64,000 nucleotides of DNA from Candidatus Micrarchaeia archaeon (GTDB lineage: Archaea > Micrarchaeota > Micrarchaeia > Anstonellales > Anstonellaceae), in contig JBAZLL010000001.1 of NCBI GenBank assembly GCA_041650255.1, positions 100,531 through 164,530 of the forward strand, written 5' to 3'. How positions within the stretch are numbered: position 1 is the stretch's first letter; each line of letters begins with the position of its first letter. The notes beneath the pieces were generated by a model, which made no database searches, had not been told where the DNA came from, and was given only the letters and a program-made list of their open reading frames with translations. Position numbers and translations under genes: made by a program. This document shows positions 21,420 to 55,822 of this stretch, piece by piece.

Positions 21420-21647
21420 ATTCTTTTTTTGTCGGAACTCCTTTTTAACGAATTGTTCCATCCGATTCCGAGTGCATATAAAAAACAAGAAAAATAAATC
21501 CGAAAAAAACCCGGGCTCGCGGGCGAGGTTGCGCGCCTGTTTTTGTTCCGGGCAATTTTTATTTTATTTCATTTTTTATCCGTTTAATGTTTTTTGTATT
21601 TTTCCATTAACAATCCATTTTTATTCTCCACTCAATCTATCTATTTC

Positions 21648-25773: not shown

Positions 25774-25781
25774 TGGTTTTC

Positions 25782-31973: not shown

Positions 31974-32090
31974 CGCCCCAGCCGGGATTTGAACCCGGAT
32001 CGCAAGCTTTCTTCTGAATATCACGCGTCTGTACATAAATGCACAAGCCATTCGGAGGCTCGCGTCCTATCCAGGTTAGACTACCGGGGC
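31974..32090 (-). tRNA. tRNA-Arg(CCG) with ~43-nt intron in the anticodon-loop region
   Basis: GCCCCGG/CTGGGGC acceptor, D arm GTCT-AACCTGGATA-GGAC, anticodon stem CGAGC..GCTTG, loop CTCCGA., T arm CCGGG-TTCAAAT-CCCGG. 50 nt lie between the anticodon stem strands. Confidence 0.8.
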
Positions 32091-33557: not shown

Positions 33558-34154
33558 TTAGTACTGTCCCCTGTATTGCATCCATTGATATTTGTCCGTT
33601 TCCTGCTTTGGCTTTAACCAATATTTTGCCAACGCATATCCGACAACCAATCCGCCCAAATGCGCCGCGCTTGCAATTCCTGAGGATGTATTGAACGAGC
33701 CGAAAAACTCAAGCACAAACCACAGAATCGCCGCATCCCGTATTTTCATCGGAATAATTCCAAAAAGCAAAAGCACAAGTGCCGGCTCCGCAACTACTAA
33801 TGCGCCAAGTATGCCAAATATCGCGCCGGATGCGCCCAGGGACGGAATGGGTGCGATAATTCCCGCAACCGTTGTGAGCTCGTACAAAACATTTCCGGCA
33901 ATTCCAGACAAAAAGAAAATTATGAGAAAATTTTTCTGCCCCATTTTTCTCTCAAGCAGTGGTCCGAATAGAAAAAGCGAATAGGCATTGAAAAAAATGT
34001 GCATCAGACTGCCGTGCAAAAATATGGAAGTTACAAACTGCCAAATCTGCAAATTCTGCGGATTAAGATAAAATATCTGGGTAAATCCGGGAACTGTCAT
34101 CTGCACCAGAAACGTCAGCGATATTACTACGAGCAGAGCCGATGTAACTTTAAT
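33558..34154 (-). CDS. rhomboid-family intramembrane serine protease (proposed ATT start at 34154; ORF-track GTG start at 34106)
   Basis: FLHGSLMHIFFN, GASGAIFG and AAHLGGL. The in-frame upstream codons encode KVTSALLVVISLTFLV (the missing TM1) and are preceded by GGTGAT. Confidence 0.8.
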   Translation of the reverse strand: MKVTSALLVVISLTFLVQMTVPGFTQIFYLNPQNLQIWQFVTSIFLHGSLMHIFFNAYSLFLFGPLLERKMGQKNFLIIFFLSGIAGNVLYELTTVAGIIAPIPSLGASGAIFGILGALVVAEPALVLLLFGIIPMKIRDAAILWFVLEFFGSFNTSSGIASAAHLGGLVVGYALAKYWLKPKQETDKYQWMQYRGQY

Positions 34155-34243
34155 TCAAATCACCAATATTGTTTATGCAAACAGGTTAAATTAAACTTGC
34201 TTAAATTGAAACTCTTTTATACCCTGCCTGTTTTGCTCATCTC

Positions 34244-35152
34244 ATGGCAACAAAACAGATATTGTGCGTTGGGCATCTTGTTTACGATATCCGAGATTAT
34301 GTAAATAGCTTTCCACAGCCGGACAAATCCGTTTTCATGAGAATGCCCTCCCAGTTCGGGCCGGGCGGAAGCGCGGCAAATGTTGCGATGAATTGCGTGA
34401 AGCTTGGGCACACAGCCGGACTTATCTCAAATGTTGGCGCGGATATGCACGGAAAATTTTTAATCAACGAATTAAGAGCGCGGGGAGTAGATAAGCGGGA
34501 AGTAAAACAAATAAAATCCGGGCGCACCGGGCTCTCAATAATTTTGATTGATTCGCAAGGACAGGTAATGGTGATTGAGGACCCCGGCTGTGTTGACGCA
34601 CCGCGAAAAATTTCTCCAAAGCCATTTTCAAATTCAAACTGGGTGCACATGACCGGATGTACGCATTCATGGCTTGAGCAGGCATCCTCTTATGCACACA
34701 AAGCCGGTGTACCGCTTTCATTTGACCCCGGGCGTGCGGCGGCAAGAATGGGAATTGAGAAGCTCTCGCGCGTAATAGAGCGTGTTGATTTTCTTGTGCT
34801 TAACAGAAAGGAATTGGCGGCTCTCTCGGGCTCTGGTTCCGCGCTTGAAGTAAAAGATTTGGCACGTGAATTTAATTGCACTGTCGTGCTCAAAACCGGG
34901 CACGGACCTGCCGTTGTATCACAAGATGGAAAAAGCACTTATGAGGTCCCTCCTTTCAATGCAAAAAAAGTTGTGGACACACTGGGCGCCGGAGATGCGT
35001 TTGCATCCGGGCTTATTTGCGGTAAATTGGAGGGGCGCTCAACTTACGAGTCCGTGAAAATGGCGCACGCATGCGCGGCGGCAAAAGTTATGCACGCCGG
35101 GGCGCAGGGAATGCCCAAAAAGGCTGCGGTAAAAAAAGAATTTTCTTTTTAG
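34244..35152 (+). CDS. PfkB-family (ribokinase-like) sugar/nucleoside kinase
   Basis: GPGGSAANVA, DTLGAGDAFASG. Confidence 0.85.
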   Translation: MATKQILCVGHLVYDIRDYVNSFPQPDKSVFMRMPSQFGPGGSAANVAMNCVKLGHTAGLISNVGADMHGKFLINELRARGVDKREVKQIKSGRTGLSIILIDSQGQVMVIEDPGCVDAPRKISPKPFSNSNWVHMTGCTHSWLEQASSYAHKAGVPLSFDPGRAAARMGIEKLSRVIERVDFLVLNRKELAALSGSGSALEVKDLAREFNCTVVLKTGHGPAVVSQDGKSTYEVPPFNAKKVVDTLGAGDAFASGLICGKLEGRSTYESVKMAHACAAAKVMHAGAQGMPKKAAVKKEFSF

Positions 35153-35164
35153 CGCGTTAAGATC

Positions 35165-35362
35165 TTAACTTCCTTCGCCCTTATTGAGCTTTTTGAGAAG
35201 TATTATCATCATCAGCGTGACTATTACTCCCGCACCGATTGCATAATATTCGGGGTCAATGTTCCCGCGCAACTCGCTCCATTGCCAGTAAATAAGATAG
35301 CCCATTGCGATTGCAAGCACAATTCTTGCAATCTCGGTTAATGCCCGCATTTTAGATGACAT
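35165..35362 (-). CDS. small two-TM membrane protein
   Basis: 65 aa. IARIVLAIAMGYLIYW and YAIGAGVIVTLMMIILL. Confidence 0.4.
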   Translation of the reverse strand: MSSKMRALTEIARIVLAIAMGYLIYWQWSELRGNIDPEYYAIGAGVIVTLMMIILLKKLNKGEGS

Positions 35363-35562
35363 ACTTATCTACTTGTATGCAGGTGTTTAAATATATTGGG
35401 AAAAGCAAAATCCAAGAAAGCAAAAACAATTTGTACAAATAAAAGTTGCATTTGCCAAAATGTATTTATCTGCGTTGGAAGCCGACGGCGGTTATTCTCA
35501 TCGGATTTAAAAGGTTTACAACGTAATTGCGAATATACATTTACTCTCATCTATGTGATAAA

Positions 35563-36276
35563 ATGAGTGCACCAAAACACGAAACACCCGTTCTCTCCCT
35601 TGAGGGGGTAACAAAGAGCTACCAAATGGGCACTGTGCGAGTGGACGCATTGCGCGGAATAAATCTTCGCATAAACAAGGGCGAGCACGCATCAATCATC
35701 GGACCTTCAGGCTCGGGCAAAAGCACACTGCTTCACATACTCGGCTTGCTTGATAGGCAGACTCATGGAATGCTAAAGCTTGACGGCGTGGACGTTTCAA
35801 AACTTTCCGACGACCAGCTTTCATATTTTCGCGGCAAAAAGATCGGTTTTATTTTTCAGGCATTTCATCTCGTGCCCTCGCTCAATGCGCTTGAGAATGT
35901 TGCACTACCAATGATGTTTTATGATGTTCCGATAAAGGAGCGGGAAAAAAGGGCACAAAAAGCGCTTGAGCGCCTCGGAATGGGAGAGCGGCTTCATCAT
36001 TTGCCTTCCGAGCTTTCGGGAGGACAGAGACAAAGAGTTGCAATCGCCCGTTCGCTTGTAAATGATCCGGCGATGCTTCTTGCGGATGAGCCAACCGGAA
36101 ATTTGGATTCAAAAACGGGCGAGGAAGTGCTCAAGATATTTGATGAAATTCATGCGGAGGGCAGGACTCTTGTGGTCGTAACCCATGATCCGAACATTGC
36201 AAAAAGAAGCCATCGGGTGATAAAGTTAAAGGATGGGCTGGTAGAATCCGATAATGGCACCGGCAAAAACGAATGA
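35563..36276 (+). CDS. ABC transporter ATP-binding protein (MacB/LolD-type)
   Basis: [37 protein letters not shown]. Confidence 0.9.
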
Positions 36277-36389
36277 GCAAATAAGACTATGAATGCGGAC
36301 AGCTGAAAATGAAAAAGAACAAAAAAAAAAAAGAAATTGAAAATGCGAACAAATGTTAATGCAAAATTGATATTCATGCGGGTGTAACT

Positions 36390-37967
36390 ATGGACGGAAA
36401 AATTACAAAAATAATGTTTTTGGCGATATTTGCGGCATTTATGCTTGCAATGCCAGTATTTGCGGACTTGTCGGTCACAAACAGTACTGTGCTCCCCTCA
36501 ACATTAAGACCTGGTGTTAAGGGTGTGGTGAGCATGACTCTCTCAAACACTGGTAGTGTGGATATACAATCTGTGCAGGTAGAAGCCGCAGGTACGGGTT
36601 ATATTTTCTCTGAAGGGCAAATCCGGCTTGGTGATTACAAGGCAGGAACCTACGGGTCCGCAACCATTCCATTTTCAGTCCCGCAAGACACTCCTGCAGG
36701 CATCTATTATCTTACAGTTCGCTTTAGCTGGATTAATGCTTCCGGCACCAGCTACAAAAACGTGCAGGTGCCAATCACCGTAACGAACCCGGCAATATTT
36801 TCCATAGATTCGCTCAATAAGTCAATTTACACAACCGGCGATTTTGAAGTAGGGGTAAAACTTTCAAACTCCGGAGGCGATGCGCGCGACATTCGTGCAT
36901 CCATAAATTCAACCCAATTTTTCCAGTCGGGTCCAAACCCGCTGACATTGGGAGATTTGCCCGCAAATAGTTCATATAATTTCCCGCTCGGAATAAGCTT
37001 AGCTTCATCTGTAACTTCCGGCACATATTCTGTTCCTATTCTCATAACATATACTGATGAGGCTAGTGCAGAAGTTGTAAGCGTTGAGAGCCTTCGTCTA
37101 AATGTAAAGCGAAAAAGCCCGACAATAGAGCTCTCGCTTGATGGTGCTCAACCATTCAATCCCGGGCACAGCTTGACCATGAAACTAAAAGTCACAAATA
37201 GCGGCACCGATACTGCTCACGACGTGCAAGTCGGAGTTGCTGGTGCAAGCGCATACAAATCAGCGACAGGTATAGATGCCTCCTCGGTAACAGACGTGCT
37301 AACTTCTTTGGGCACTCCGTTCGCAAATCTTGGAGACATTGCTCCCGACAATTACAAAATCGCGGTACTGCCCGTCGGAGTAAATGATGTGCAGGCAGGC
37401 TTTTACCGCCAATATATGTCAATAAAGTCAAAGGATGACAACGGCGATGCGAAAGCGGACGAGCTTCAGCCCCTTGGCATAAATGTTGAGGGTGTGAGCG
37501 ATGTAAGTGTTTTTGTTTCTGCAAAACCGGCGCCAATAGTTGCCGGCAGCGACAACACGCTTTCAGTTTTGGTTTCAAACATCGGCTCCAGCCCGATAAA
37601 AGCCCTCATTGTAAAAATAGATGGAAAGGATTTTGTATTGCAAGAAGCGCAGGATGAGCAATTTATCGGTGGGCTGGCAGAAGACGATTTTAGCACCGTT
37701 CAGTACAAGGTAAAAGTTGCAAACGTTCCAACCAGTGTTTCCCCCCTCAACGTTTCAATGCGATTTAAGGACAGCTACAACCGCGATTACAATCGCTCGC
37801 AAATAGTGCAACTCAAAATCTTAAGCCCGAGCGACGCGGGGGCCGGAGCACAGGGTGGCGTGGATATTTTCATGCTAATAATCGTTCTTGTGATAATCGG
37901 CGCCGCAGTGTGGCATTTCTTTTTGCGCAAGAAAGGAGCAACCACTCAAAAAGAGGCAAAGAAGTAA
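36390..37967 (+). CDS. secreted, C-terminally anchored surface protein with repeated beta-sandwich (S-layer/CARDB-like) domains
   Basis: Signal ..IMFLAIFAAFMLAMPVFA, repeated 'LSNTGS/VTNSGT/VSNIGS' strands, C-terminal TM FMLIIVLVIIGAAVWHFF. Confidence 0.6.
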   Translation: MDGKITKIMFLAIFAAFMLAMPVFADLSVTNSTVLPSTLRPGVKGVVSMTLSNTGSVDIQSVQVEAAGTGYIFSEGQIRLGDYKAGTYGSATIPFSVPQDTPAGIYYLTVRFSWINASGTSYKNVQVPITVTNPAIFSIDSLNKSIYTTGDFEVGVKLSNSGGDARDIRASINSTQFFQSGPNPLTLGDLPANSSYNFPLGISLASSVTSGTYSVPILITYTDEASAEVVSVESLRLNVKRKSPTIELSLDGAQPFNPGHSLTMKLKVTNSGTDTAHDVQVGVAGASAYKSATGIDASSVTDVLTSLGTPFANLGDIAPDNYKIAVLPVGVNDVQAGFYRQYMSIKSKDDNGDAKADELQPLGINVEGVSDVSVFVSAKPAPIVAGSDNTLSVLVSNIGSSPIKALIVKIDGKDFVLQEAQDEQFIGGLAEDDFSTVQYKVKVANVPTSVSPLNVSMRFKDSYNRDYNRSQIVQLKILSPSDAGAGAQGGVDIFMLIIVLVIIGAAVWHFFLRKKGATTQKEAKK

Positions 37968-37982
37968 GGAGGGCTTTTTCCA

Positions 37983-39194
37983 ATGGCCAATTTTTTGGAC
38001 CTGCTCTCCTATGCAATGCGCTCGCTTTCGCATAGAAAGCTGCGCTCTTATCTGACAGTGCTTGGCATTGTAATAGGAGTCGCCTCCGTAGTCGCGCTCA
38101 TATCCATTAGCGACGGGCTTTACGCAAACGTGCAGGACCAACTCGGGTCTTTCGGAGCGAGAAATGCGGTAATTGTTGCAGGCGGAACTCAGGGTTTTTC
38201 TGGAGGAGGTTATTCCTCTCCAAAGAATGGCAAGCTCTTTGAGAACGATTATAATAAAGTGAAATCAATGTCCGGAGTAATTGATATATCAAAATCTCTT
38301 TCCACGCGTGCACTTTTGGAATTTAAAACCGAAAATATCAGTGTATCTGTCAGCGGAATAGAACCAAGCGCTTATGAAAAATTATATACTGTGAATATAT
38401 CCTCCGGACGATTTTTGAGTGATAATGACCGAGGGGTGGCAATAGTCGGCTCAAGCTATGCCGACAAATCCATTTTCAAGAAAAACACAATGAGTGTGGG
38501 CTCCGTCTTCTACCTGGGAGAGGGCAAAAAAAAGTTCAAGGTAATCGGATTGCTTGACCCTTCAAGTTCGTATTCAAAAAATTCAGTGGTTATTCCTTTT
38601 GACGATGCAAAAGAGCTTGCCGGGGATACAATTGCAGACAAGGAGCTTTCCTCAATAACTTTCAAAGTTGCGGAAGGCTTTGATGTTGATGAAGTTGTTT
38701 CAAACGTGGAATCCAACTTGGCGGCATATCATCGCAAAAAAGTGGATGACAAAGATTTTACAATTGTAACCTCCAAATACATTCTTGAGCAGGTTGGGCA
38801 AATAATCGGAATACTTACTGCGTTTCTTGGATTTATCACCGGCGTCTCACTGGTAGTGGGCGGAGTCGGTGTTGCAAACACGATGTACATGACTGTTCTT
38901 GAAAAGACAAAGGAAATAGGCACCCTAAAAGCAATTGGTGCGACGAGTAGCACCATAATGCAACTCGTAATTCTTGAGAGTGCGATTATCGGGCTTGTCG
39001 GCGGGGTTATTGGCGTGGGTGTCGGCTGGCTTATCTCCCTTATTGTAACATATCTTGGTTTCAAGACGTTGGTCACTCCCTATATCGTGCTCTTTGTACT
39101 GATTTTCTCAATAGTTGTCGGAATATTATCCGGCTTTTTCCCGGCAAAAAAGGCAGCCAAATTATCCCCTGTGGAGGCAATGAACTACGGTTGA
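37983..39194 (+). CDS. ABC transporter permease, FtsX/MacB family
   Basis: N-terminal TM, large periplasmic-type loop, and C-terminal FtsX module (TKEIGTLKAIGATSSTIMQLVILES). Confidence 0.85.
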   Translation: MANFLDLLSYAMRSLSHRKLRSYLTVLGIVIGVASVVALISISDGLYANVQDQLGSFGARNAVIVAGGTQGFSGGGYSSPKNGKLFENDYNKVKSMSGVIDISKSLSTRALLEFKTENISVSVSGIEPSAYEKLYTVNISSGRFLSDNDRGVAIVGSSYADKSIFKKNTMSVGSVFYLGEGKKKFKVIGLLDPSSSYSKNSVVIPFDDAKELAGDTIADKELSSITFKVAEGFDVDEVVSNVESNLAAYHRKKVDDKDFTIVTSKYILEQVGQIIGILTAFLGFITGVSLVVGGVGVANTMYMTVLEKTKEIGTLKAIGATSSTIMQLVILESAIIGLVGGVIGVGVGWLISLIVTYLGFKTLVTPYIVLFVLIFSIVVGILSGFFPAKKAAKLSPVEAMNYG

Positions 39195-39198
39195 TAAT

Positions 39199-40434
39199 AT
39201 GAAATCCGCCTCTGACATTTTCTGGTATTCTTTCAAATCGCTTTGGCACAACCGAGTGCGCTCCGCCCTAACCGTGCTTGGCATCGTGATTGGCATCGCA
39301 TCAATTGTCGCGCTAATTTCAATCAGCCAGGGGCTTTCTGCAAGCATCAACGATATTCTAATGTCTTTTGGATCCAACAACGTAATGGTGATGCCCGGGA
39401 GCCTTTCAAATCAGATGTCTGGTGGCGGAGCTCCGAATGCAAATCCAATGTCTGGTCGGCTTTTTGAAAAAGATATGGATGCGATAAAAACGGTTCCTGG
39501 GGTGCAGGATGTTTCAGGCTATATAATGAACAGCCAACAAATTTCTTTTCGGGATAGAACACTCACAATGACTATCTTCGGAGTTGATGATTCCTATTTC
39601 AAACTGTTTGGCGAGGCCACATTGCCTTTGGCGGAAGGGAGGTATTTGCGCTCATCGGACAGGGATGTAGTGGTTATAGGCGCAGACATCGCAGATGGAA
39701 AAACCCACTTTGACAGGACATTATCCGTCGGGCAGTTCGTATACATCGGAAAAGATCAGAAGAAATTTAGGGTAGTCGGCATTTTGAAAAAATTCGGCGG
39801 GGTTCGCAGTGACGACGACAATTCAATAATTATCTCATATGACGATATGCGCGACTTATCTGCCGGATTTATTGCAAAAAAAGAAGTGAACGGAATAATG
39901 TTTCGCGTGGCAGACGGCTTCAATGTATCCGAGGTCGCATCCCAAGTTGAGCTCAAGCTTGCGAATTCGCACAAAGTAAAACTTGACGACAAAGATTTCA
40001 GCATTATAACTTCCGAATCTTTAATGAAACAAACAAGCCAGATAACCGATTTACTTTCTCTCTTTTTGGGTTTTATCGCATCCATTTCACTTGCAGTCGG
40101 CGGAGTCGGGGTAATGAATACGATGTATATGGCCGTAATGGAGAGAACACGAGAAATCGGAACGCTAAAGGCAATCGGCGCATCAAACAATGCGATTCTC
40201 TCTTTATTTATTTTTGAGAGCGGGCTTTTAGGGCTCCTTGGAGGGCTAATCGGGCTCTTTCTCGGCTCTCTTATCTCGCTCATTGTGGTGCTTGCGGGCT
40301 TTAAGACTGCGGTGACATTGCCACTTGCACTTTTTGCACTTACCTTTTCATTCGTACTCGGGCTTGTTTCGGGTATATTGCCCGCATTGCAGGCATCAAA
40401 ATTGCCTCCGATAGAAGCGCTAAGATACGAATAG
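39199..40434 (+). CDS. ABC transporter permease, FtsX/MacB family (paralogue)
   Basis: Same architecture as the previous permease (TREIGTLKAIGASNNAILSLFIFES). Confidence 0.85.
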   Translation: MKSASDIFWYSFKSLWHNRVRSALTVLGIVIGIASIVALISISQGLSASINDILMSFGSNNVMVMPGSLSNQMSGGGAPNANPMSGRLFEKDMDAIKTVPGVQDVSGYIMNSQQISFRDRTLTMTIFGVDDSYFKLFGEATLPLAEGRYLRSSDRDVVVIGADIADGKTHFDRTLSVGQFVYIGKDQKKFRVVGILKKFGGVRSDDDNSIIISYDDMRDLSAGFIAKKEVNGIMFRVADGFNVSEVASQVELKLANSHKVKLDDKDFSIITSESLMKQTSQITDLLSLFLGFIASISLAVGGVGVMNTMYMAVMERTREIGTLKAIGASNNAILSLFIFESGLLGLLGGLIGLFLGSLISLIVVLAGFKTAVTLPLALFALTFSFVLGLVSGILPALQASKLPPIEALRYE

Positions 40435-42779: not shown

Positions 42780-42871
42780 GGGTGCATATTCTCTGATACA
42801 TTTTATAAAAACAGGCGCCCGAAAATTTGGCAAATTAATTTCTGCCTTCGGCTAAAAGGAGTAAAAATTGT

Positions 42872-42984
42872 GTCAGCAACAACCAGCCTTCCCGCGAGAT
42901 CGCAGTAACGGCGCGGTCGTGAACAAGCTTAACTGCCGAGTTCGAGATGGGTTCGGGTGTTTCCTTGTTCCTATGGCCGCTGAC
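42872..42984 (-). rRNA. 5S rRNA (stand-alone)
   Basis: Minus strand reads GTCAGCGGCCATAGGAACAAGGAAACACCCGAACCCATCTCGAACTCGGCAGTTAAGC...GGTTGTTGCTGAC. The termini pair. End coordinates are +/- a few nt. Confidence 0.9.
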
Positions 42985-44562: not shown

Positions 44563-44744
44563 GTATTGCTCACCTCTATATTTCATCGGTTCATAGCTGA
44601 AGCTAGAAAAATTCAGCGAGATATATTTGTGCACCCATGCTTATAAAGCTTGATTATAGCCTCTGTCAAACCAAAAAACGCCCTGCCCATTAAAAACCGG
44701 AAATAGGTCAACAAAACTTTGAATCACAAACTCAAATATGAAAA

Positions 44745-44954
44745 TGGCCCCTCATAGTCCGCCTTCTGTTTTAATTACTGCATTCGACTAAGCGGCGTTA
44801 AAACGCCTTGCGTGCCTGTACAGCATTCACGGCCGTTTCATCCCTTGCGGGTATCGTTTCTGCTCCGTGGTGCGCACCTTAAGTGCTTGTACTTTTAGCG
44901 GCGCGGGCGGAGCTTCCTCACTCTTTTGCAAGAGCGCAAGCAGTCCGGGGGCCA
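44745..44954 (-). ncRNA. rnpB: RNase P RNA, unusually compact (~210 nt)
   Basis: The minus strand shows these elements. P1 is GGCCCC..GGGGCC. P3 is CTCTT-GCAA-AAGAG. The CR-I-like element is GTGAGGAAGCTCCGCCC. GGGATGAAACGGCC is present. The CR-V-like element is ACAGAAGGCGGACTAT, with P4 pairing TCCGCC/GGCGGA. Confidence 0.75.
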
Positions 44955-44978
44955 TTTGATAAAATTAGGTATTTCGCA

Positions 44979-46567: not shown

Positions 46568-46705
46568 TGCCATGGGGGAGATTTGAACTCCCGGCTTCCA
46601 GATGGCTCAGCCACTGCCATTATTCGTCATTATGCTAATGCATTCTGCACTCATATGGATTTGACCTATGAGTCTGGCACTCTAACCAGGCTGAGTTACC
46701 ATGGC
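46568..46705 (-). tRNA. tRNA(CAU) (elongator Met or Ile2) with 63-nt intron
   Basis: GCCATGG/CCATGGC acceptor, ACTC-AGCCTGGTTA-GAGT, anticodon stem CCAGA..TCTGG with CTCATA, T arm GGGAG-TTCAAAT-CTCCC. The intron contains TATGAGT, complementary to ACTCATA. Confidence 0.8.
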
Positions 46706-46879: not shown

Positions 46880-49165
46880 TTATCTTATCACCGGCATCTC
46901 TATGTCTATGCTCGGCAAAGCGGCGCTTATCCCCTTCGCACTCTCCTGTGCAGGCAAAGAAATGCTTGTTATATTCGGCATATCCGGCGCAATCTCATTT
47001 ACCTTTATGTACTTGTTTGAGATTGTGTACAACTCATCGCCGATATAAATGCTTCTTTGCACGGTTGCAGAATCCCACCAGCCGAAATAGCCTGTTTGCA
47101 GAGAGTGTTCAACCTTTCCAACCTCGTCAAACCCATTTTTGCTTATATTAAACACATATGCTCCGTTCCAGGTTTTTGTCTTGTCGTTGAACAGTCCACT
47201 GCTGGTCTCAACTTCGGTGACTGGCAAAACCATCAGGCCTCTCTTTGCATCAAGCAAAAATGCTTTGTGGTCATGCAATACTGCCGAGTCGGAACCCGAG
47301 TCTCCAATTTCAACGCTGTCAATAAGCTTTGGATTTGCCGGGTTTGTGACGTCAAAGAGAGCCGCTTTCACTCCCTTTGTGCTTGTCGTGCCCCATTCAC
47401 TCTCGCCGGTTTCTTTTCCAATTCCAATAATTATATTTCCCTCAAACGGATGCAAATATTGGCTGTATCCGGGAAGCTTTAGTGCTCCGAGAATTTCCGG
47501 ATTTTTCGCATCCGACAAATCAATTACAAAGAACGGGTCCACCTGCTTGTAAGTGACAAGATATAATCTGTCGCCCATAAATCTTGCAGAATATATTTTT
47601 TCATCCTGCGCAATTACTTCAAGCGAGCCGATTGTCTTCATGCTTGAATCAAGCACATACACATTGTTGTATTGCACATGCTTTGCCGCCCAAACATCAA
47701 CCGTTGTGGCGACGCGCAGATTCGAGTCTTTCTCATCCATCGCAAACTGATTCACCAAATACCCCGGAACACTTCCGGCACCCGAATACGAAATCTGCCC
47801 GTTTTTCACGCCGAGTTTGTAAATGGTTGTCTTTGTGTTTGCAATCTGGTATTTTGCGTCGTATTCCGCCAATGCGTCGGTTATGTCCTCAACAAGCTTT
47901 GTGTAATATTGCTTTTTTGCATCCGGTAGCAAAGAGCCGTCGCCCTCATACGCCGGTTTCATGAAGTCCATCAAAATCGGTTCAATCTCCTGCCATTTCT
48001 GCTCGTCGTTTCCGGCTCCATTTTTTATCGGCAAAATTTTTGCCTGCACATCCTGCGGCAAAAGCGGGAGCATGACATCATAGAATCGTTTGCTTGCATT
48101 CATGCCCTGATTATTTTTGCACCATCTGCAATAGCCCCAATACTGGTTTTGGTATGCAAGATAGATGTTATTGTCGGACATCATCATGGTGCTTGAATAT
48201 CCGAGCAAAAATGTTTTTGCATCCAACACTTTTTCATCTTGCACCGAGATTGATGCGATTGTGTTTAGCTGGTACGAGCTTTGTATGTCGTCAAAATAGT
48301 ATATTTCCGGTGTAATCATTGCGTCTTTCTGATAAATCTGCGGACCATTTACATTCTCATAGTATCCGCCCGGGCTTTGCTGTGTAATGACATACACTAC
48401 TTTATCCATCATCCTTGACTGGTAATAGCTTCCTGAAATTGAAATGTTTGAGCTGATTTTCGGGTTTTTCACATCGCTAATATCGTATGTGTAAACGATT
48501 GTGTACGCGTCGTATTTTTGGTAAGGTGTTATGTCATATTCCGATATTGCCATGGATTTTTTCTGGGCGCCTGCAAAAAGCACAAGTTTTTTTCCCTGCA
48601 CAAACATCTGGTTTGCCTGTCCATAATTCCCATTTCCATCGTCGGGAATCTTTGTCCTGCTGACTATTTTTGCTTCTTTGGGATTTTGAGCATCAACGAT
48701 TATCAGCTCGTTTCCTTCTATAAGATAAATGTATTTTCCATCAGTCTTTACAAAATCCGCTTCGTCAATTCCTGCTATCTGAACATTTGTCTGCGAATAA
48801 TCGGAGCCTGCAACAGAGCCCTCGTTCATGCTCTGGTCTGTTGGTGCTGCGCTTGGTGAAATCGCGGTTATTATTTTCTCCATTCCAAATGATTCGGTGC
48901 TCGTGGTCCTTATTGCCCCTGTGCCGGAGTTTGAATTTGTCTGCGTAATCTGACTGCTTTGAAGCATCCACGCATTCATTTCCTGCAAACTTGAAAATTT
49001 CTTAAGCCCGTTAATTTGCGCAAGCGGCTGTGAAATATTGCTAAGCTCGCTCGGCTTTGTGATGCTTGGAATTTGGTCTGTTGTTTTTTGCGTAGTGCCT
49101 GTGCACCCTGCTACAAGCATAATAGAAAATATTGCCAATGCGATTACTAAATTCATTTTGTCCAC
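46880..49165 (-). CDS. secreted beta-propeller-domain lipoprotein
   Basis: Lipobox IMLVAGCTG. C-terminal LYLVTYKQVDPFFVIDLSDAKNPEILGALKLPGYSQYLHPF is typical of the 'beta propeller domain' family of secreted proteins. Confidence 0.7.
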   Translation of the reverse strand: MDKMNLVIALAIFSIMLVAGCTGTTQKTTDQIPSITKPSELSNISQPLAQINGLKKFSSLQEMNAWMLQSSQITQTNSNSGTGAIRTTSTESFGMEKIITAISPSAAPTDQSMNEGSVAGSDYSQTNVQIAGIDEADFVKTDGKYIYLIEGNELIIVDAQNPKEAKIVSRTKIPDDGNGNYGQANQMFVQGKKLVLFAGAQKKSMAISEYDITPYQKYDAYTIVYTYDISDVKNPKISSNISISGSYYQSRMMDKVVYVITQQSPGGYYENVNGPQIYQKDAMITPEIYYFDDIQSSYQLNTIASISVQDEKVLDAKTFLLGYSSTMMMSDNNIYLAYQNQYWGYCRWCKNNQGMNASKRFYDVMLPLLPQDVQAKILPIKNGAGNDEQKWQEIEPILMDFMKPAYEGDGSLLPDAKKQYYTKLVEDITDALAEYDAKYQIANTKTTIYKLGVKNGQISYSGAGSVPGYLVNQFAMDEKDSNLRVATTVDVWAAKHVQYNNVYVLDSSMKTIGSLEVIAQDEKIYSARFMGDRLYLVTYKQVDPFFVIDLSDAKNPEILGALKLPGYSQYLHPFEGNIIIGIGKETGESEWGTTSTKGVKAALFDVTNPANPKLIDSVEIGDSGSDSAVLHDHKAFLLDAKRGLMVLPVTEVETSSGLFNDKTKTWNGAYVFNISKNGFDEVGKVEHSLQTGYFGWWDSATVQRSIYIGDELYTISNKYIKVNEIAPDMPNITSISLPAQESAKGISAALPSIDIEMPVIR

Positions 49166-49288: not shown

Positions 49289-49711
49289 TTAATTTTTAGG
49301 ATTCGGAGATATTTTCACATCCCCATCCTCATACCAAAGATATGCAATTTTTTCAAATTTGGAATTTGCTATAACTTTTGGATTGCACAAAACATCTCTT
49401 GAATAGTTCCATCGCCCATCTGTCGCAATAATTTTTCTGTTGTCTGTGCTAATGCCAAATTTAGTATAAGCAATCTCAACAGTCCTTGAATTCCCCTCTC
49501 CCAGAATACAAATTTCGTCCGCATAATCCGCAATCATGTCCACTCCGTCTTTCAGCGATTTTTTTTGCAAAATGCCTTCTTGGGAGTTTTGCATTTCGTT
49601 TACCGCGGACGCGGCTATGATTAAAAGAGATAATGCAACCGCGCAAACCAGCAGGGTCTCAAGGGTTAATTGCCCTTTTTTTTGTTTAATGAAGAGTGCA
49701 CCCAACAACAT
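49289..49711 (-). CDS. class III signal peptide (type IV pilin-like) protein
   Basis: MLLGALFIKQKKG|QLTLETLLVCAVALSLLIIA. Confidence 0.65.
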   Translation of the reverse strand: MLLGALFIKQKKGQLTLETLLVCAVALSLLIIAASAVNEMQNSQEGILQKKSLKDGVDMIADYADEICILGEGNSRTVEIAYTKFGISTDNRKIIATDGRWNYSRDVLCNPKVIANSKFEKIAYLWYEDGDVKISPNPKN

Positions 49712-49774
49712 CAATCCCTTAGAAAATTTGAATTAACCCATACACCAAATCGGTGTTGGGTATTGCCGGCAAGC

Positions 49775-50017
49775 TTACTGGCAATATCCTATGCTTGTGT
49801 CGCAACTGCCAAATCCAAGCTTTTGGCAGTCAGCATCCGTGGAGCAAGCGGCATCCCCTGCCGAATATGTTGTCTTATTTATCAAGTCGTTTGCCTTTGT
49901 ATCCATCGCATCTCCCACATTTTTTGTGGTTTTTGCCATTTGCGTGTACGCAATAAATGCCAGCCCCAAAACAAGCACCATTATGATAAGCATCTCTGCG
50001 GAAAGCTGTCCCTTCAT
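49775..50017 (-). CDS. small type IV pilin-like protein (80 aa; major-pilin candidate)
   Basis: MKG|QLSAEMLIIMVLVLGLAFIA. GAGGTG lies 5 nt upstream. C-terminal 4-Cys motif CSTDADCQKLGFGSCDTSIGYC. Confidence 0.7.
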   Translation of the reverse strand: MKGQLSAEMLIIMVLVLGLAFIAYTQMAKTTKNVGDAMDTKANDLINKTTYSAGDAACSTDADCQKLGFGSCDTSIGYCQ

Positions 50018-50408
50018 CACAACACCTCAGATATTATTCTCATTTGCGCTTATTATGGCTTACTATTTGGCAAAATGCCAAAAATTGTTGAAAAAATCAA
50101 AATCGGCAAAAAATTTGAAAACAAGCAAAAACAGGCTCGGAATAAAAAGCAAAAAACAGCTCGACTCTGAAACTGGCAAAAGCAAAAAAAAAACACTGCC
50201 TGGAGCAAAACCTGCAAAACCAAAAAATAAAAACACGCGGGCGGCCCCGAGGTCGCCTCGGGGTCAATTGTTTTCAAATTTTTTGCGGGTTTATTTTTGT
50301 TCAGACAAATCCGATTTTTCATTCAATTTAGAAAATTTATTTTTAGGACAAAGACAATCTCTAGAGGCTTTGGATTAGATTTAAAAGCATCTTAAATGTA
50401 GGGTTTGC

Positions 50409-51053
50409 ATGGAAATGGGGAGAACAGGCTTTGCCTTCTCGTTGGATGCGTTTGTTGCGTTTTCATTGGTGCTTATTGCCATTCAATCCCTAATTGTAAT
50501 TTCGTCCGCCCCCCAAGGATATTATCAGGGTCTTGGGCAGGCAAACTATCTTGCACAAGGGACGCTGGACGTCGTATCCGATATAAGATTAGATGATGGG
50601 CGAACATCTTTGCTTGACGGTGTCGCAAGAAATGCGCTTATTGGAAGTTCGCCTCCCGACCAGCTTAGAGTAGCTACCGAACGCCTCATTCCATCCCCTT
50701 ATTCCTATTCGTATGATTACTATGATTTTGGCGCAAAGAGCTGGTACAAGGTGTACAATGCATCCGAGCATATGAAAATTCCATTTGATGCTTATTACAA
50801 TCCTCGCTATTCCAACGTATCTTTTAATCGGGTGATGGCAACATCCACAATTCTTGTTGGTGCATATTCGGATCCGGTGATTGTTGGCGATTCGCCTTAT
50901 TGCAATGTTCAATGCAAGGGATATCGCGCGTCAACCGACGATTATTCTGATCCTCAAAGTTGCATTCAAGTCCCATGCAATGTAAATCCAAAAAGCACAT
51001 TTGACGCAGGTGATTATAGCATCGGGCTTTTGCGCCTGTCGGTATGGGGTTGA
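50409..51053 (+). CDS. type IV pilin-like protein
   Basis: MEMGRTG|FAFSLDAFVAFSLVLIAIQSLIV. Confidence 0.6.
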   Translation: MEMGRTGFAFSLDAFVAFSLVLIAIQSLIVISSAPQGYYQGLGQANYLAQGTLDVVSDIRLDDGRTSLLDGVARNALIGSSPPDQLRVATERLIPSPYSYSYDYYDFGAKSWYKVYNASEHMKIPFDAYYNPRYSNVSFNRVMATSTILVGAYSDPVIVGDSPYCNVQCKGYRASTDDYSDPQSCIQVPCNVNPKSTFDAGDYSIGLLRLSVWG

Positions 51054-51055
51054 AG

Positions 51056-53068
51056 ATGAAAAAGGCACACATAAATTACAAAAAGGGATTTTTCTTCACG
51101 GTTCTGGCACTGGTATTGCTCTCATTTATTTTTATCTCCGTGCAAATTTGGGCGCAGGCAAAACAGGTGGAGGAGAATCGCGCGGCGGAGCAATTTCGCT
51201 TAAGCGCAATGCGTACCTCGCTTAAACTCATCAGCAACGAAACCCTCTCAAACTATGCAAAGGCGTCAATGCTTTATGCGCTAAACAAACTCTCATCATC
51301 AATTGAGGAGCATCCCGATTTGGCGGTAAAGGGAATCAAATTCAATGATGATATCAAAAAGGACCCCGAAGGAATAAAATATGTGAATGCAAGCATTTAC
51401 GAGCTAATGATATATGGCAACACAAGCGGCTATCTTGTAAAGGATTATTCTTCCTCAAGCACTCCCGCAACGGACTACTTCTACAATTACGTCGGGTTTG
51501 ACCCAGACTTAGAAAGCGGAGGAAGCATATTAATCCGAAAAAATCTTACCTATTCTGGGGAGGAGAAAAAATATGCAATCTCATACTTTTTTGAATCCAC
51601 AACGCAAGCGGCAAAAATGCTCGGCTACAATATAGCTTGGGGCAAGCCATACAATTTCTCATTCAATCAGTCCGATCTCTGGCACGTACGCGTGTATATG
51701 CAGGTGCCTGTGGAATTTTCCGATTTGGAAGGCAGGCTAAAAATAAATAAAGAGCTTTCTGCAGATGCCACGATTGACATTCAAGGACTTAGCGATCCAT
51801 ACATAATGAGAAAAGATGTCTCTTACCGCGATACTCCATTTTCTATAGACTCAACATTTTTCCAATCAAGACCTCATCGCAATGTTTACCATATAACCGG
51901 ATATGAAGATTACCGTACCGGCGGGGTGCAGGCGCAATTGAAAAAAGAGGGGCTTGAGGGAATGGGCTGGTTTTATGGTCCGGTAGCAGAAAATATAGCC
52001 CATGACGATGCCCTATTCGCGAGCAAGCAAGATTATCGTTACAATATCTCAAAATTAAATCAATATATATTCGCCACAAGCGATGCGGATCTTGCAAGAG
52101 CGGAATCTGCGTTCTTTGGCGGAATAATACTCTATGGTCAATCCTCATTTTACTCTCTCACCAATCGAGTTGAGGTTCAATCAAAGAATCCCAATCTACC
52201 ATGCTATCGCGATGAATATTCACAAACGGGTTGTCTATGGTGCGTTAAAAAATACGAATATATGCCCCCTCAATGTTCCGACACCTCCCTCCCAGAGCCG
52301 TATTATTACAAATACCCTGCAAGGCTTGACATCCCGCACGTTGTAGTCAGCGGCGGTCTGCCAAGCGTACAAAACAATTATCATCTTCAAATGCCGTATA
52401 TGCTTATTGACAACAAGCTGAACATTTCCGATATTTGTGGTGCATACAACTCCGATCCATCATGCAGGAATTTGGGAACCACTGTAGATGAAAGCCTAGC
52501 TCTTCTTCAAAGAAAACAATCCGATTCATCGGGCGGCAACGACCATTCATGCTCTATATGGGACATGAACGGACCCCGCGACATGGCACTATGCGGCTAT
52601 TATACATGGTCGCCTTATGGTCCGTCCTATTTGCAAAGACTCAGTGCGATTCCCTCATCTGTTGAAAGAGACCGAACCGACACCGCAAAAGGAATTTATC
52701 CGGGTATTTCAACGCTTGGATTCGGGATAGAATCTTTTGATGTTGGCACATGGGCAGGTGGAAAAATAGATCAAAATACAAACAAGAACCTCGGTGCTGC
52801 GGACTCCGAAATGGAGCTAAGCTCAAGGGTTGATTATCAATTTTATCGCCAATCCGGCGCAACACCTGCTTGCATGGGCATGTTCCAAAAATCAATGCCC
52901 GGATGCAAGGACAGTGCAACCTGCTCAAACCAGACAATGGCAATTGAATACTCAACAGGAAGATTTGCATTCACAATTCAATATGACAATCCGGTAGAAC
53001 GTTACAATATGACAAAGCTTGGCTATGTGCCCCTGGGCTCCGGGTTCGGGGTAAGCTCGTGTAAGTAG
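51056..53068 (+). CDS. large (670 aa) protein with pilin-like N-terminus (tip adhesin candidate)
   Basis: MKKAHINYKKG|FFFTVLALVLLSFIFISV. The start lies 2 nt after the upstream stop. Confidence 0.55.
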   Translation: MKKAHINYKKGFFFTVLALVLLSFIFISVQIWAQAKQVEENRAAEQFRLSAMRTSLKLISNETLSNYAKASMLYALNKLSSSIEEHPDLAVKGIKFNDDIKKDPEGIKYVNASIYELMIYGNTSGYLVKDYSSSSTPATDYFYNYVGFDPDLESGGSILIRKNLTYSGEEKKYAISYFFESTTQAAKMLGYNIAWGKPYNFSFNQSDLWHVRVYMQVPVEFSDLEGRLKINKELSADATIDIQGLSDPYIMRKDVSYRDTPFSIDSTFFQSRPHRNVYHITGYEDYRTGGVQAQLKKEGLEGMGWFYGPVAENIAHDDALFASKQDYRYNISKLNQYIFATSDADLARAESAFFGGIILYGQSSFYSLTNRVEVQSKNPNLPCYRDEYSQTGCLWCVKKYEYMPPQCSDTSLPEPYYYKYPARLDIPHVVVSGGLPSVQNNYHLQMPYMLIDNKLNISDICGAYNSDPSCRNLGTTVDESLALLQRKQSDSSGGNDHSCSIWDMNGPRDMALCGYYTWSPYGPSYLQRLSAIPSSVERDRTDTAKGIYPGISTLGFGIESFDVGTWAGGKIDQNTNKNLGAADSEMELSSRVDYQFYRQSGATPACMGMFQKSMPGCKDSATCSNQTMAIEYSTGRFAFTIQYDNPVERYNMTKLGYVPLGSGFGVSSCK

Positions 53069-53075
53069 TGGTTTG

Positions 53076-53639
53076 ATGATGTGCAACAAATCTAATCTAA
53101 AAGGGCAGTCCTCTGTTGAGGCGTTGCTGATATTGGCGGTTGCAATAGCGTTCATCATACCTCTCGCATTAATATTTTTCTCATCAAGCGCTTTGGGACT
53201 TGAGACATTATCTCAGTTGCAGACAAAGGCGCTCGCGCAACATATTTCAGATGCCGCCGGGCAAGTATGGTACGAAGGTCCGGGTGCAAGAAAAACAATT
53301 CTTGTAAGCTATCCCGACGGGATTGAGAGCATTCGTCTAAGCGGAGACGATGTGACCTGTTTTCTAATCGGAAGTGAGCGAGTGTGCCATGATGATATAA
53401 AATACAAAGGTCGCGACATCGTGCTCACACTGGCGCTTGAAAATGCTGGTAAGGTGCAAATAGATGCAATATCTCCCGCTCCGATGAAAAACGAATATTT
53501 TAGGGATGCGGCGCAAAATCTGAATTACAAATATTCTCCAACTGATGAAAAGCTTACTGCGGGGCTCGTTGTTCTTGTAGTAAAAAATGAGGGACCGTAT
53601 GTGAACGTTGTTCGCTATGTTGACGGCTTGGACTATTGA
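53076..53639 (+). CDS. type IV pilin-like protein
   Basis: ..KSNLKG|QSSVEALLILAVAIAFIIPL. Confidence 0.65.
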   Translation: MMCNKSNLKGQSSVEALLILAVAIAFIIPLALIFFSSSALGLETLSQLQTKALAQHISDAAGQVWYEGPGARKTILVSYPDGIESIRLSGDDVTCFLIGSERVCHDDIKYKGRDIVLTLALENAGKVQIDAISPAPMKNEYFRDAAQNLNYKYSPTDEKLTAGLVVLVVKNEGPYVNVVRYVDGLDY

Positions 53640-53648
53640 GGTCATGTA

Positions 53649-54197
53649 ATGATTTGCAAAAAAACAGTCGGGGAAAAATTTGCGTTCGCAAAGAGAGGAC
53701 AGGCATCAGTTGAGATAATGGTATATCTGGGCTTTTTCATGCTAATGTTTGTTTTCTTCTCCCTATTTATCATCTCCGATTTTAACAACGAAGTACAGCA
53801 AAGAAAATTTTTGATGGCAAAAGAGACTGCAAACCAGATTGCCGATTATGCAAATTTTGTGCTTGAGGCAGGTCCCGGCACGGCCGCCAACTTCTCAATT
53901 CCAAGCAACATAAACGGCAAGGATTACAATTTGACTTTTACAAGCTCCGGTTGGATGTATGTAAATGTGCAGGATGATGATGTCGGAATGATATCTTTTC
54001 CGCATCCGATCGGGTATAAAAATTACCGAATGGGATGCCTGCATGAGCCCCAATGTCCAAAAAACTTTGAGAGGACTTACGTCGATCTATTCGCCCCCTA
54101 CACTGTTTATTCAATCTACGTGGTGGACGGGCAAAAGGGCTGGTTATATCTAAATTACTCTTCCGACAAATTCGGGGAGAGAATAGAGGTGGGATGA
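53649..54197 (+). CDS. type IV pilin-like protein
   Basis: ..FAKRG|QASVEIMVYLGFFMLMFVFF. Confidence 0.65.
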   Translation: MICKKTVGEKFAFAKRGQASVEIMVYLGFFMLMFVFFSLFIISDFNNEVQQRKFLMAKETANQIADYANFVLEAGPGTAANFSIPSNINGKDYNLTFTSSGWMYVNVQDDDVGMISFPHPIGYKNYRMGCLHEPQCPKNFERTYVDLFAPYTVYSIYVVDGQKGWLYLNYSSDKFGERIEVG

Positions 54198-54835
54198 TGA
54201 AATTTCTAAAAGGGCAATACTTTTCATTTGATGCCATCATCGCCACGGTGATATTTGTAATGGCGCTCTCGATTCTGTTTAATCACTGGTACGCGGCACG
54301 CTCGCAAATGGACGAGCAGGGAAATTTTCTCCAGTCCGAGGCGCATCGCATATCAAATATATTTTTGGGTGTCGGAGACTATTCTGTGAAAAATGTTAAG
54401 GGCAATTACTGGTATCAATATCCCGACGATGCGCTAAGAGCAGGCTTTGGAGAGAATGGCTCTTTTATCGGGCATTTGCATTTCAAGAGCACTGCGGACG
54501 GAACTCCTGGCTATGATCCGATTTATGCGGCCCAAAACTATATTGGAGTGAAGAATTCCCCCCAATACGACGCATCACGCTCTTTGATTGCAACGTCTGC
54601 AAATTATTATGCCACGTTTGAGTTGGGGATTGAAAATCCAAAAGATTATACTTCTCTGTTTTTCGGACCGGCATCCTATATCAGCACTGCGATTGGAAAG
54701 GTCCCGCCAGCAAATGCAGAAATCGCAAAAGTGGTTCGCCCCATCATGATAAAAGACATCGGATATAAACCGCCTGTTTATTACGCCGGAAACATGACTG
54801 TTTATGTGTGGAAAGAGGATGCAAGAGGGTCTTGA
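54194..54835 (+). CDS. type IV pilin-like protein
   Basis: MMKFLKG|QYFSFDAIIATVIFVMALSILF. 4-nt ATGA overlap with the upstream gene. Confidence 0.65.
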   Translation: MMKFLKGQYFSFDAIIATVIFVMALSILFNHWYAARSQMDEQGNFLQSEAHRISNIFLGVGDYSVKNVKGNYWYQYPDDALRAGFGENGSFIGHLHFKSTADGTPGYDPIYAAQNYIGVKNSPQYDASRSLIATSANYYATFELGIENPKDYTSLFFGPASYISTAIGKVPPANAEIAKVVRPIMIKDIGYKPPVYYAGNMTVYVWKEDARGS

Positions 54836-54850
54836 ACAAAAATAGAAAAT

Positions 54851-55822
54851 TCAATTCTGTATTTTTTCTTCCCATTTTTTCGGCAATGGTTTTCCAATCC
54901 AGTCTTTCATCTTAAGCTCAATCGCGGTAATCGGGCTTATTCCGTTTGGTATCTGCCCAAGCCCGAATCGGACTGCCGCCGATTCCATGTCATCAAATAC
55001 GACTGTCGTTCCCTGCGCGCTCACAACTATTTTTGATTCGTCAATTTTGATATTTTCAATTTGAGGGCGCTTTTCCTCAAATGGCTCAAACACAAGACGC
55101 GCTCCGCTTCCGATGTGAAGCTCACCATTTCTTCTAACCCCGTTTTCAATTCCAACCTTCATTCCTTTTTTGAGCGATGTCGCCAATCCGGGGCTGTCCC
55201 ATTTCACAACCCTGATTCTGCCCGTCCCATCTTCAATTTCAAACGCGCTCATAAGCGCTTTTTGCGCCCCGCCATCAAGCTTGGTCTGACCGCGCGAATA
55301 TTCAAAATCCCCATGCACCTGCGTTATCTCTCCTTCAAAATTTGCATATGTAGTGCTTGAGTTTAATTTTGCCCTCGCACCCTTTTGCAATATTTTTATT
55401 TCCCCGCCCTGCATTAGTGCAAATTCCCTGCCCCGCATTCTCATCGGTCCGATTTGCACTAAATCCCCGATTAGCACCTGTTGTTCAATCTTTTTTCCAA
55501 GCTCGTCGTAGCAGGCGATAATGAAAGTGCCCGTTTGGTCTTCAACTTCAACGCGCTGAGTGCGGGAAACCGATGCGCCCCTCTCAAATATTTGCGGTAC
55601 AAAAACCCGTTTTATGCGCACGTGCAAAATTGACGGGCTTGCTCTTGCTTTTGCCTGCGCAATGGTGCAGACTTGTGCCTGTGTTCCGAATTTTTCAAGT
55701 GAAAGAAGATATCTGGCAGTTTCATCAGTGATAAGATAATGGTATTCTTGCAATTTTTGCTTTATGCCCGCGTTGATTTCTTCCAAAGAGAGCACTGAGC
55801 TTAATTGATCATTTTCTGCCAT
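54851..55822 (-). CDS. RPA-like single-stranded DNA-binding protein (multiple OB folds)
   Basis: VEDQTGTFIIACYD and IEDGTGRIRVVKWD, the OB-fold 'D.TG.I....W' pattern of archaeal RPA. Confidence 0.55.
   Translation of the reverse strand: MAENDQLSSVLSLEEINAGIKQKLQEYHYLITDETARYLLSLEKFGTQAQVCTIAQAKARASPSILHVRIKRVFVPQIFERGASVSRTQRVEVEDQTGTFIIACYDELGKKIEQQVLIGDLVQIGPMRMRGREFALMQGGEIKILQKGARAKLNSSTTYANFEGEITQVHGDFEYSRGQTKLDGGAQKALMSAFEIEDGTGRIRVVKWDSPGLATSLKKGMKVGIENGVRRNGELHIGSGARLVFEPFEEKRPQIENIKIDESKIVVSAQGTTVVFDDMESAAVRFGLGQIPNGISPITAIELKMKDWIGKPLPKKWEEKIQN

Follow-up and report, generated by a model that had tools for sequence, protein, structure and literature searches.

How can a row of genes for type IV pilin-like proteins be understood when the surrounding DNA encodes no machinery that could assemble them? 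This question is raised by a locus in a 64-kb stretch of DNA from Candidatus Micrarchaeia archaeon (we refer to the whole stretch as the window and count positions from its first nucleotide), where seven consecutive open reading frames (ORFs), here named g1 to g7, occupy positions 49289-54835. The first-pass annotation of this DNA took them for a self-contained filament locus of unknown type. From the analyses described below, we conclude that the cluster is likely to be the structural gene set of a Micrarchaeota type IV pilus, an archaeal member of the type IV filament superfamily, whose subunits are probably one short shaft protein, five small accessory proteins and one large likely adhesin. 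The 670-amino acid product of g4 is identical to the NCBI protein WC492_00815 from a metagenome-assembled genome of Candidatus Micrarchaeia archaeon, and an identical public Logan contig bears the same seven gene calls with the same starts.

The analysis confirmed the seven ORFs and the N-termini that had been ascribed to them. On the minus strand lie g1 (49289-49711, 140 amino acids, N-terminus ..KQKKG/QLTLE, where the slash marks the predicted cleavage site) and g2 (49775-50017, 80 amino acids, MKG/QLSAEMLI), while the plus strand carries g3 (50409-51053, 214 amino acids, ..GRTG/FAFSLDAF), g4 (51056-53068, 670 amino acids, ..YKKG/FFFTVLALVLL), g5 (53079-53639, 186 amino acids, ..NLKG/QSSVE), g6 (53649-54197, 182 amino acids, ..AKRG/QASVE) and g7 (54197-54835, 212 amino acids, ..FLKG/QYFSFDAI). 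We treat g2, a short pilin, as the candidate major (shaft) pilin, g4, with its pilin-like N-terminal domain, as a candidate tip adhesin, and the other five, comprising the Q-type g1, g5 and g6, the F-type g3, and finally g7, as presumed minor pilins. Each protein starts with a short basic leader ending in [KR][GA], with G or A at -1 and usually K or R at -2, followed by Q or F and a hydrophobic helix of about 20 residues, and this N-terminal helix is its single hydrophobic segment. The description of all seven as class III signal, type IV pilin-like proteins was thus borne out. An acidic residue at +5, reported as a further trait frequent in the set, holds for part of it, since E occupies this position in g1, g2, g5 and g6, whereas g3 and g7 have D at +6 and g4 has none.

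Is this concentration of signals more than coincidence? We scanned all ORFs of the window, alternative starts included, with a relaxed FlaFind-like pattern ([KRH][GA], an allowed residue at +1 and a hydrophobic stretch free of charges, no more than 35 residues from the start codon). Eight matches were obtained, six of them inside the cluster, and g3 was missed only through the T at its -2 position. The two matches outside the cluster fell in an ABC-2 transporter membrane protein and at an internal start of an unannotated 518-amino acid ORF that is probably a multi-pass membrane protein. With six of the eight matches in the cluster and a Fisher p of about 5e-7, for which the number of other genes was approximated, the motif is clustered far beyond chance.

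Comparison with homologues indicated that the predicted site is maintained in evolution. Within each of the seven families (10-12 genomes, 32-55% identity) the sequence [KR][GA]/Q or F is kept. Four families, g1, g2, g5 and g6, share the start Q-x-[STA]-x-E, in which Q(+1) and E(+5) are invariant in 44 of 44 sequences, and together with their homologues they fit the archaeal class III motif QXSXEXXXL of the Pfam PF04021 (Class_IIIsignal) type; 11 of the 44 family members match PF04021 at E <= 0.01, the best at E = 3.7e-5, and one gene of the Gugararchaeum operon has a precomputed weak match to it. By family, [KRHN][GA]/Q-x-[ST]-x-E was found in 11/11 homologues of g1, an invariant mature start QLSAEMLI in 12/12 of g2, and the class III motif in 11/11 of g5 and 10/10 of g6. 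The remaining proteins, g3, g4 and g7, form a second, looser group with the starts G/F-x-F-S-L-D, [KR]G/F-x-F-T-V-L-A-L and G/Q-Y-F-S-x-D-A-I, respectively, and have no match to PF04021. Their sites are nevertheless stable, G/F-[AV]-F-S-L-D-[AS]-F being kept in 12 loci for g3, [KR][GA]/F-x-F-T in 16/16 aligned homologues for g4, and [KR]G/Q-[YF]-F-S-x-D-A-I in 10/10 homologues for g7, to which the distant loci L021 and L022 can be added (loci bearing related genes are numbered with L). In all seven families the mature residues 1-25 are better conserved than the remainder (55-78% versus 32-45% identity), and such a concentration of conservation in the first 25 mature residues is the pattern seen in pilins.

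Beyond the N-terminus the proteins are largely dissimilar, with some detectable kinship. Profile comparison by hhalign aligned g1 with g5 over residues 3-74 (probability 93%), g5 with g6 over residues 2-73 (96%) and g1 with g2 (96%), and gave a weaker result for g1 and g6 (45%); by this measure g1, g5 and g6 are paralogues over about 70 residues, that is, beyond the membrane helix. Conserved cysteines occur in every family except those of g5 and g7, with two in g6, four in the C-terminal part of g2 and nine conserved columns in g4, and g4 has 10 N-glycosylation sequons here and 10-26 in its relatives. Cysteines and sequons alike fit extracellular proteins.

How widely are these families distributed? 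The g3 family comprises 33 clusters, and every member bearing an organism name comes from Micrarchaeota. An exhaustive hidden Markov model (HMM) search at E <= 1e-3 placed 245 clusters (50% identity) in the g4 family, which only this search widened, a profile-based word search having returned no relatives beyond those of the first search. All named g4 relatives are from Micrarchaeota (Anstonellaceae, Burarchaeum, Gugararchaeum) except one on a 2.7-kb contig that is binned as a Planctomycetota bacterium (P0196), most likely through faulty binning and not because a bacterium has a homologue. Matches of 205-270 amino acids to the C-terminal region of g4 were considered as a separate mobile domain, and this was rejected because they look like fragments, the one that we checked (P0169) sitting on a 1-kb contig. 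As far as names go, therefore, the seven families appear to be restricted to Micrarchaeota, and, judged by their 'hypothetical protein' labels and by the absence of Pfam, NCBIfam and PDB relatives, they are undescribed.

The genes are also organised as a unit. The five plus-strand genes had been proposed to form an operon, and gaps of 2-10 nt or an overlap, varying with the start codon chosen, agree with this; on the minus strand g2 precedes g1 with 63 nt between them. We fetched related loci by way of the g4 family and found that all related Micrarchaeota loci of sufficient length retain the seven genes with order and orientation unchanged; the set is full in L002, L004, L005, L007, L008, L009 and L011 and is cut by contig ends in L010, L013, L014, L016 and L017. 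Since the flanks differ among these loci, it is selection, and not just a recent shared ancestry, that keeps the block intact. A core consisting of a g3-like gene, a g4-like gene and two or three Q-type genes is kept in the distant loci L021, L022 and L023, which come from Burarchaeum, Gugararchaeum and one more remote Micrarchaeota genome, and its cleavage motifs are recognisably those of the cluster; the Burarchaeum proteins, for example, carry the sites KRG/FVFTFDAF, RRA/FFFTG, KKA/QASTE, KKA/QVALE and SKG/QFFSLD. Moreover, the neighbourhood next to the operon (DHH, prefoldin, L37ae, exosome, SBDS and proteasome) is common to Burarchaeum and the window, which argues for vertical inheritance.

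Which of the seven could form the shaft, and which could act as the adhesin? The 80-amino acid g2 had been singled out as the major-pilin candidate, and it remains the best one, being the shortest protein of the set, almost headless, with an invariant N-terminus, a transcription unit of its own and a GAGGTG Shine-Dalgarno sequence 6 nt upstream of its ATG. Three leader residues precede a helix of about 50 residues, and the protein closes with a small C-terminal four-cysteine knot. This 4-Cys end, noted earlier, proved to be kept in 12/12 homologues; mature residues 1-25 are 70% identical across the homologues and the remainder 32%. These features make g2 the best candidate for the shaft, by analogy with the short Epd and Tad pilins. 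One argument used in its favour did not survive, namely that its Shine-Dalgarno sequence is uniquely the best of the cluster, as GAGGTG precedes g7 as well and GAGGT precedes g6.

For g3 and g4 we inspected AlphaFold2 models. The g3 model (mean pLDDT, the predicted local distance difference test score, 82.5) shows a broken long N-terminal helix (residues 12-33 and 39-57) together with a pair of short helices, a sheet of four strands and a loop that holds the four conserved cysteines. In the g4 model a 48-residue helix (15-62) is followed by a sheet extending to about residue 245 with pLDDT 70-90, residues 250-309 and 507-674 have pLDDT below 50, and residues 310-506 are mixed; the C-terminal part of about 420 residues is rich in cysteines and in N-glycosylation sequons and has no confident fold. 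Thus, the predicted secondary structure of g3 and of g4 residues 15-245 fits a pilin fold of helix plus sheet, and the view of the 670-amino acid protein as a pilin-like protein with a large extra domain is upheld by its class III start, its helix and sheet and its C-terminal part of about 420 residues. Since the globular parts match no solved structure and no Pfam or NCBIfam family, what the models support is the secondary-structure layout of a pilin. The top Foldseek matches of g4, kinesin motor domains, were dismissed as noise (TM-score about 0.06), and distant g4 relatives had no match in Pfam.

Several observations weigh against the assignment of the cluster to a type IV pilus. As the first-pass annotation had stated, assembly machinery is missing from the window: Pfam scans of 58 ORFs, including all unannotated ones, found no T2SSE ATPase, T2SSF platform protein or A24 peptidase. 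Likewise, in L002, L004, L005, L021, L022 and L023, the six related loci with Pfam-labelled genes, the 10 kb on either side of the module contain neither an ATPase nor a platform protein nor a peptidase, so that a cognate machinery in this organism is assumed here from the literature. Searches of the seven proteins against Pfam and NCBIfam returned solely PF04021 matches for g1 (16.2 bits) and g2 (18.9 bits), both below the cut-off of 23.7. Residues other than K and R occur at -2 in the g3 family. Among PDB structures, Foldseek matched no solved pilin to the g3 and g4 models (no hit below E = 2.4 and 0.02, respectively), and the profiles of the g3, g4 and g7 families retrieved nothing meaningful from the PDB. 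The distant loci L021, L022 and L023 lack the divergent g2/g1 pair, whose link to the operon is therefore lineage-limited. Finally, the likeness to a seven-pilin cluster of the cultivated Micrarchaeon Mia14 was drawn from its published description.

Does the lack of machinery in cis call the assignment into question? Archaeal pilins are often encoded apart from the ATPase/platform module, and pilins in trans to ATPase/TadC are established in Haloferax, Halobacterium and Methanococcus (PMC4858521; bioRxiv 10.64898/2026.04.22.720090). Among Micrarchaeota, Mia14 is reported to have two type IV pilus systems, in one of which an ATPase and TadC are followed by seven class III signal proteins, and one FlaK-like peptidase is encoded in its genome (PMC5498576). 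Furthermore, LFWA-III genomes, including LFW-29, were reported to have type IV pili genes (PMC8561730); the LFW-29 contig is our locus L004/L012 and carries the full module. Because both pilins in trans and Micrarchaeota pilus genes are documented, the absence of machinery in cis, which is ordinary for archaea, is no ground for regarding the cluster as autonomous or as a new type, and to call it a self-contained filament locus of unknown type was an overreach. Short Epd/Tad-like major pilins and large adhesin-like proteins are likewise described in archaeal pilus loci (PMC4858521; 10.64898/2026.04.22.720090).

Some of the same observations could be read in another way, according to which the N-terminal segments act as ordinary Sec signals or as signal anchors that stay uncleaved, the motif serves helix packing in the membrane, and the proteins build a surface complex unrelated to type IV filaments; the window encodes no recognised peptidase or ATPase of the pilus type, the models match no solved pilin structure and the window proteins score under the PF04021 cut-off. 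We consider this highly improbable, because an invariant G/A at -1 followed by Q/F at +1, in seven otherwise dissimilar families, is what characterises a prepilin peptidase site, because QXSXEXXXL is matched exactly by four of them, and because the motif is clustered well beyond chance. Somewhat less improbable, yet still a poor prospect in our judgement, is a short pseudopilus or membrane-anchored complex, comparable to the Sulfolobus bindosome or the type II secretion pseudopilus, that holds g4 at or through the S-layer. Such a complex would suit the make-up of the set, in which six of the seven proteins are accessory-like and one is shaft-like, and the fixed stoichiometry that a coupled operon implies, and archaeal class III signal proteins do include surface proteins that form no filament (10.64898/2026.04.22.720090). 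However, g2, short, Tad/Epd-like and with an invariant N-terminus, is typical of a polymerising shaft subunit, and thin filaments, possibly pili, have been seen on a cultivated member of the Micrarchaeota (PMC11329633).

The role of g2 is also where a further alternative departs from our own reading. The g3-g7 proteins, with or without g1 and g2, might be a minor-pilin and adhesin set that primes or caps a filament whose major pilin is encoded elsewhere, g2 being a low-abundance component. The distant Micrarchaeota that keep a g3-g7 core with no g2 or g1 nearby speak for this, as do the additional class III signal ORF located 8 kb from the module in L011 and the fact that archaea commonly have major pilin genes that stand alone (PMC4858521). 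On the other hand, the g2 N-terminus is the strictest in the cluster (invariant in 12/12), the protein is the shortest of the seven, heads its own transcription unit behind a strong ribosome-binding site and resembles the Epd/Tad-type short major pilins as described, and we therefore regard this alternative as unlikely. We favour a complete structural gene set, shaft subunit included, and none of the outcomes that had been named beforehand as contradicting a pilin-like nature of the cluster was observed.

How would such a pilus be built? Cleavage, filament formation, the identity of the major subunit, the location of g4 at the tip and the biological role are all points that we infer from the anatomy of the genes and proteins and by analogy with the Epd, Tad, type IVa pilus and type II secretion systems. 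All seven proteins would be inserted in the membrane via their N-terminal hydrophobic helices, after which a FlaK/PibD/EppA-type prepilin peptidase would cut behind the conserved G or A. A coupled g3-g7 operon implies equimolar products, as would suit a priming or tip complex, and we propose that the translationally coupled products of g3-g7 assemble into a roughly equimolar complex of this kind, in which g4 would display its glycosylated, disulfide-rich C-terminal domain as an adhesin. Beneath this tip g2 would polymerise as the shaft, its paralogue g1 may be a low-abundance subunit, and a PilB/FlaI-like ATPase together with a PilC/TadC-like platform protein, both with genes elsewhere in the genome, would drive assembly. 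The likely use of the filament would be attachment to surfaces or to a host cell. A narrower version, in which g3-g7 form a Micrarchaeota-specific, vertically inherited tip complex whose g4 recognises the host through its glycosylated, disulfide-rich domain, so that the structure is a contact device of DPANN symbiosis and not a general adhesion pilus, is a tentative idea to which we give some weight while doubting it.

The cluster lies in an ordinary chromosomal setting. Pfam scans identified archaeal housekeeping genes in the window (exosome subunits, SBDS, proteasome alpha, FtsZ, GlyRS, CysRS and prefoldin), and the window also holds an archaeal RNase P RNA, a 5S rRNA and tRNA genes long enough for introns, from which we take it to be archaeal chromosome; the G+C content is even, 41-46% throughout, and so gives no sign of an island. 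Of the RNA genes, the archaeal RNase P RNA (44743-44956, 93 bits, 214 nt against a 288-position model) and the 5S rRNA (42871-42984) lie near the cluster. Two Rfam tRNA matches that ARAGORN missed, at 46568-46705 (138 nt) and 31974-32090 (117 nt), are probably intron-containing archaeal tRNA genes, and a tRNA-splicing endonuclease gene is located at 21594-22166. A small protein encoded at 22199-22648 matches Pfam PF18894, 'putative phage metallopeptidase' (E = 4.8e-16), and a gene of this type was also seen near the pilin operon of a distant Micrarchaeota genome (L020/L021, 2827-3225). Five window ORFs of 347-518 amino acids (2120-3559, 5937-7061, 9277-10833, 25722-26765 and 30338-31573) had no Pfam match at E = 0.1.

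Between the divergent g2 and g3 lies an intergenic region (50018-50408) in which reading of the sequence revealed a TTTAAAA box some 30 nt ahead of the ATG of g3. This spacer has 388 nt here versus about 60-70 nt in L002, L004, L005 and L008, and the extra sequence is A-rich. It contains a GC hairpin of 10 bp (50243-50265, -21.3 kcal/mol, z = -2.3) followed by a T-rich run, which was flagged as terminator-like on the plus strand. Comparison of the spacer with Rfam matched no family, and scans of it for sigma-70 promoters and terminators remained at background level. From its sequence, the spacer may act as a promoter region.

To the left of the cluster, a minus-strand gene (46880-49165) encodes a secreted 761-amino acid beta-propeller protein (PF09826, E = 9.7e-155) with a lipobox-like LVAGC. 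The first-pass annotation named a lipobox beta-propeller protein as flanking the cluster, and it does adjoin it, LVAGC included; that it belongs to the module is not supported. A PF09826 protein adjoins the module only in the closest relatives, L007, L008, L016 and L017, other loci having different left flanks, and in L007 and L008 the synteny with the window extends to GlyRS, DHH and prefoldin. Because the adjacency thus tracks general synteny among the closest relatives, we set the beta-propeller aside as a component.

On the other side, a 323-amino acid OB-fold (RPA-like) gene (54851-55822) directly follows g7 and lies one to three genes from the module in L002, L004, L005, L007, L008, L009, L013 and L014, which is probably plain synteny. 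A block of genes for a rhomboid protease, a PfkB kinase, an ABC ATPase, a CARDB surface protein and two MacB/FtsX permeases occurs about 1-2 kb past the module in several relatives (L004 13798-21953, L005 13827-22022, L009 14794-21256), and in the window it is at 33558-40434, about 14 kb upstream of the module; either the genome has been rearranged here or there was once some reason for the two blocks to lie side by side. Two further ORFs in related loci are of note. At positions 275-763 of L011, about 8 kb from the module, an extra ORF of 162 amino acids with the class III-like start RRA/QGAAEYLVLMAIVIV may encode another pilin, and in L020/L021 (13402-15513) a 703-amino acid protein with an N-terminal hydrophobic segment, encoded directly after the g7-like gene, may be an extra operon component in that lineage.

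What does the locus add to present knowledge? Like other DPANN archaea, Micrarchaeota live attached to host cells. Our analysis defines a phylum-wide syntenic module of five pilin-like genes, one of them for a large candidate adhesin, joined in one lineage by a short shaft-pilin candidate, and thereby adds seven families to the archaeal pilin catalogue. As a candidate adhesion or host-contact set in a DPANN phylum, the module offers targets for filament proteomics, cryo-electron microscopy and localisation. It is no new kind of machine, since both pilins encoded apart from their motor and type IV pili of Micrarchaeota are already in the literature.

Among known systems, the Epd pili of Methanococcus maripaludis and other DUF361/PF04021 pilins (archaeal type IV filament system 1) are closest in N-terminal design. 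Q at +1 and the QXSXEXXXL N-terminus, found here in g1, g2, g5 and g6, are shared with them, as are a very short major-pilin candidate almost without a globular head, several minor pilins, and the placement of some pilin genes apart from the ATPase locus. However, there is no detectable similarity past the N-terminal 25-30 residues, g3, g4 and g7 use F-x-F or Q-Y-F-S-x-D N-termini, the families described here are confined to Micrarchaeota as far as names go, and the ATPase, two platform genes and dedicated EppA peptidase that the Epd locus contains have no counterpart in the window or in related flanks. The Haloferax PilB3/PilA1-6 and PilB4-type loci are similar in that they combine several class III signal pilins with an ATPase/TadC module possibly in trans; compared with euryarchaeal multi-pilin loci in general, the proteins studied here match no Pfam pilin family other than PF04021. 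Mia14 (MIA14_0252-0260) is the instance of a Micrarchaeon with seven class III signal genes in a row, although these adjoin an ATPase and TadC, unlike the genes of our cluster and of any relative examined.

In bacteria, the nearest parallels are the priming complexes encoded by FimU-PilVWX-PilY1-PilE and GspH-I-J-K. With no Pfam, NCBIfam, PDB-sequence or Foldseek match to PilY1 or GspHIJK, the analogy is one of gene organisation, and, unlike PilY1, g4 is itself pilin-like with a class III signal and has no detected beta-propeller or von Willebrand domain. Two traits nevertheless recall bacterial pilins, namely the acidic residue at +5 or +6 and the G/F with which g3 and g4 start, and the operon in both cases joins four or five small pilin-like genes to one gene for a large protein, an arrangement that suggests a stoichiometric tip complex beneath which a separately transcribed major pilin polymerises.

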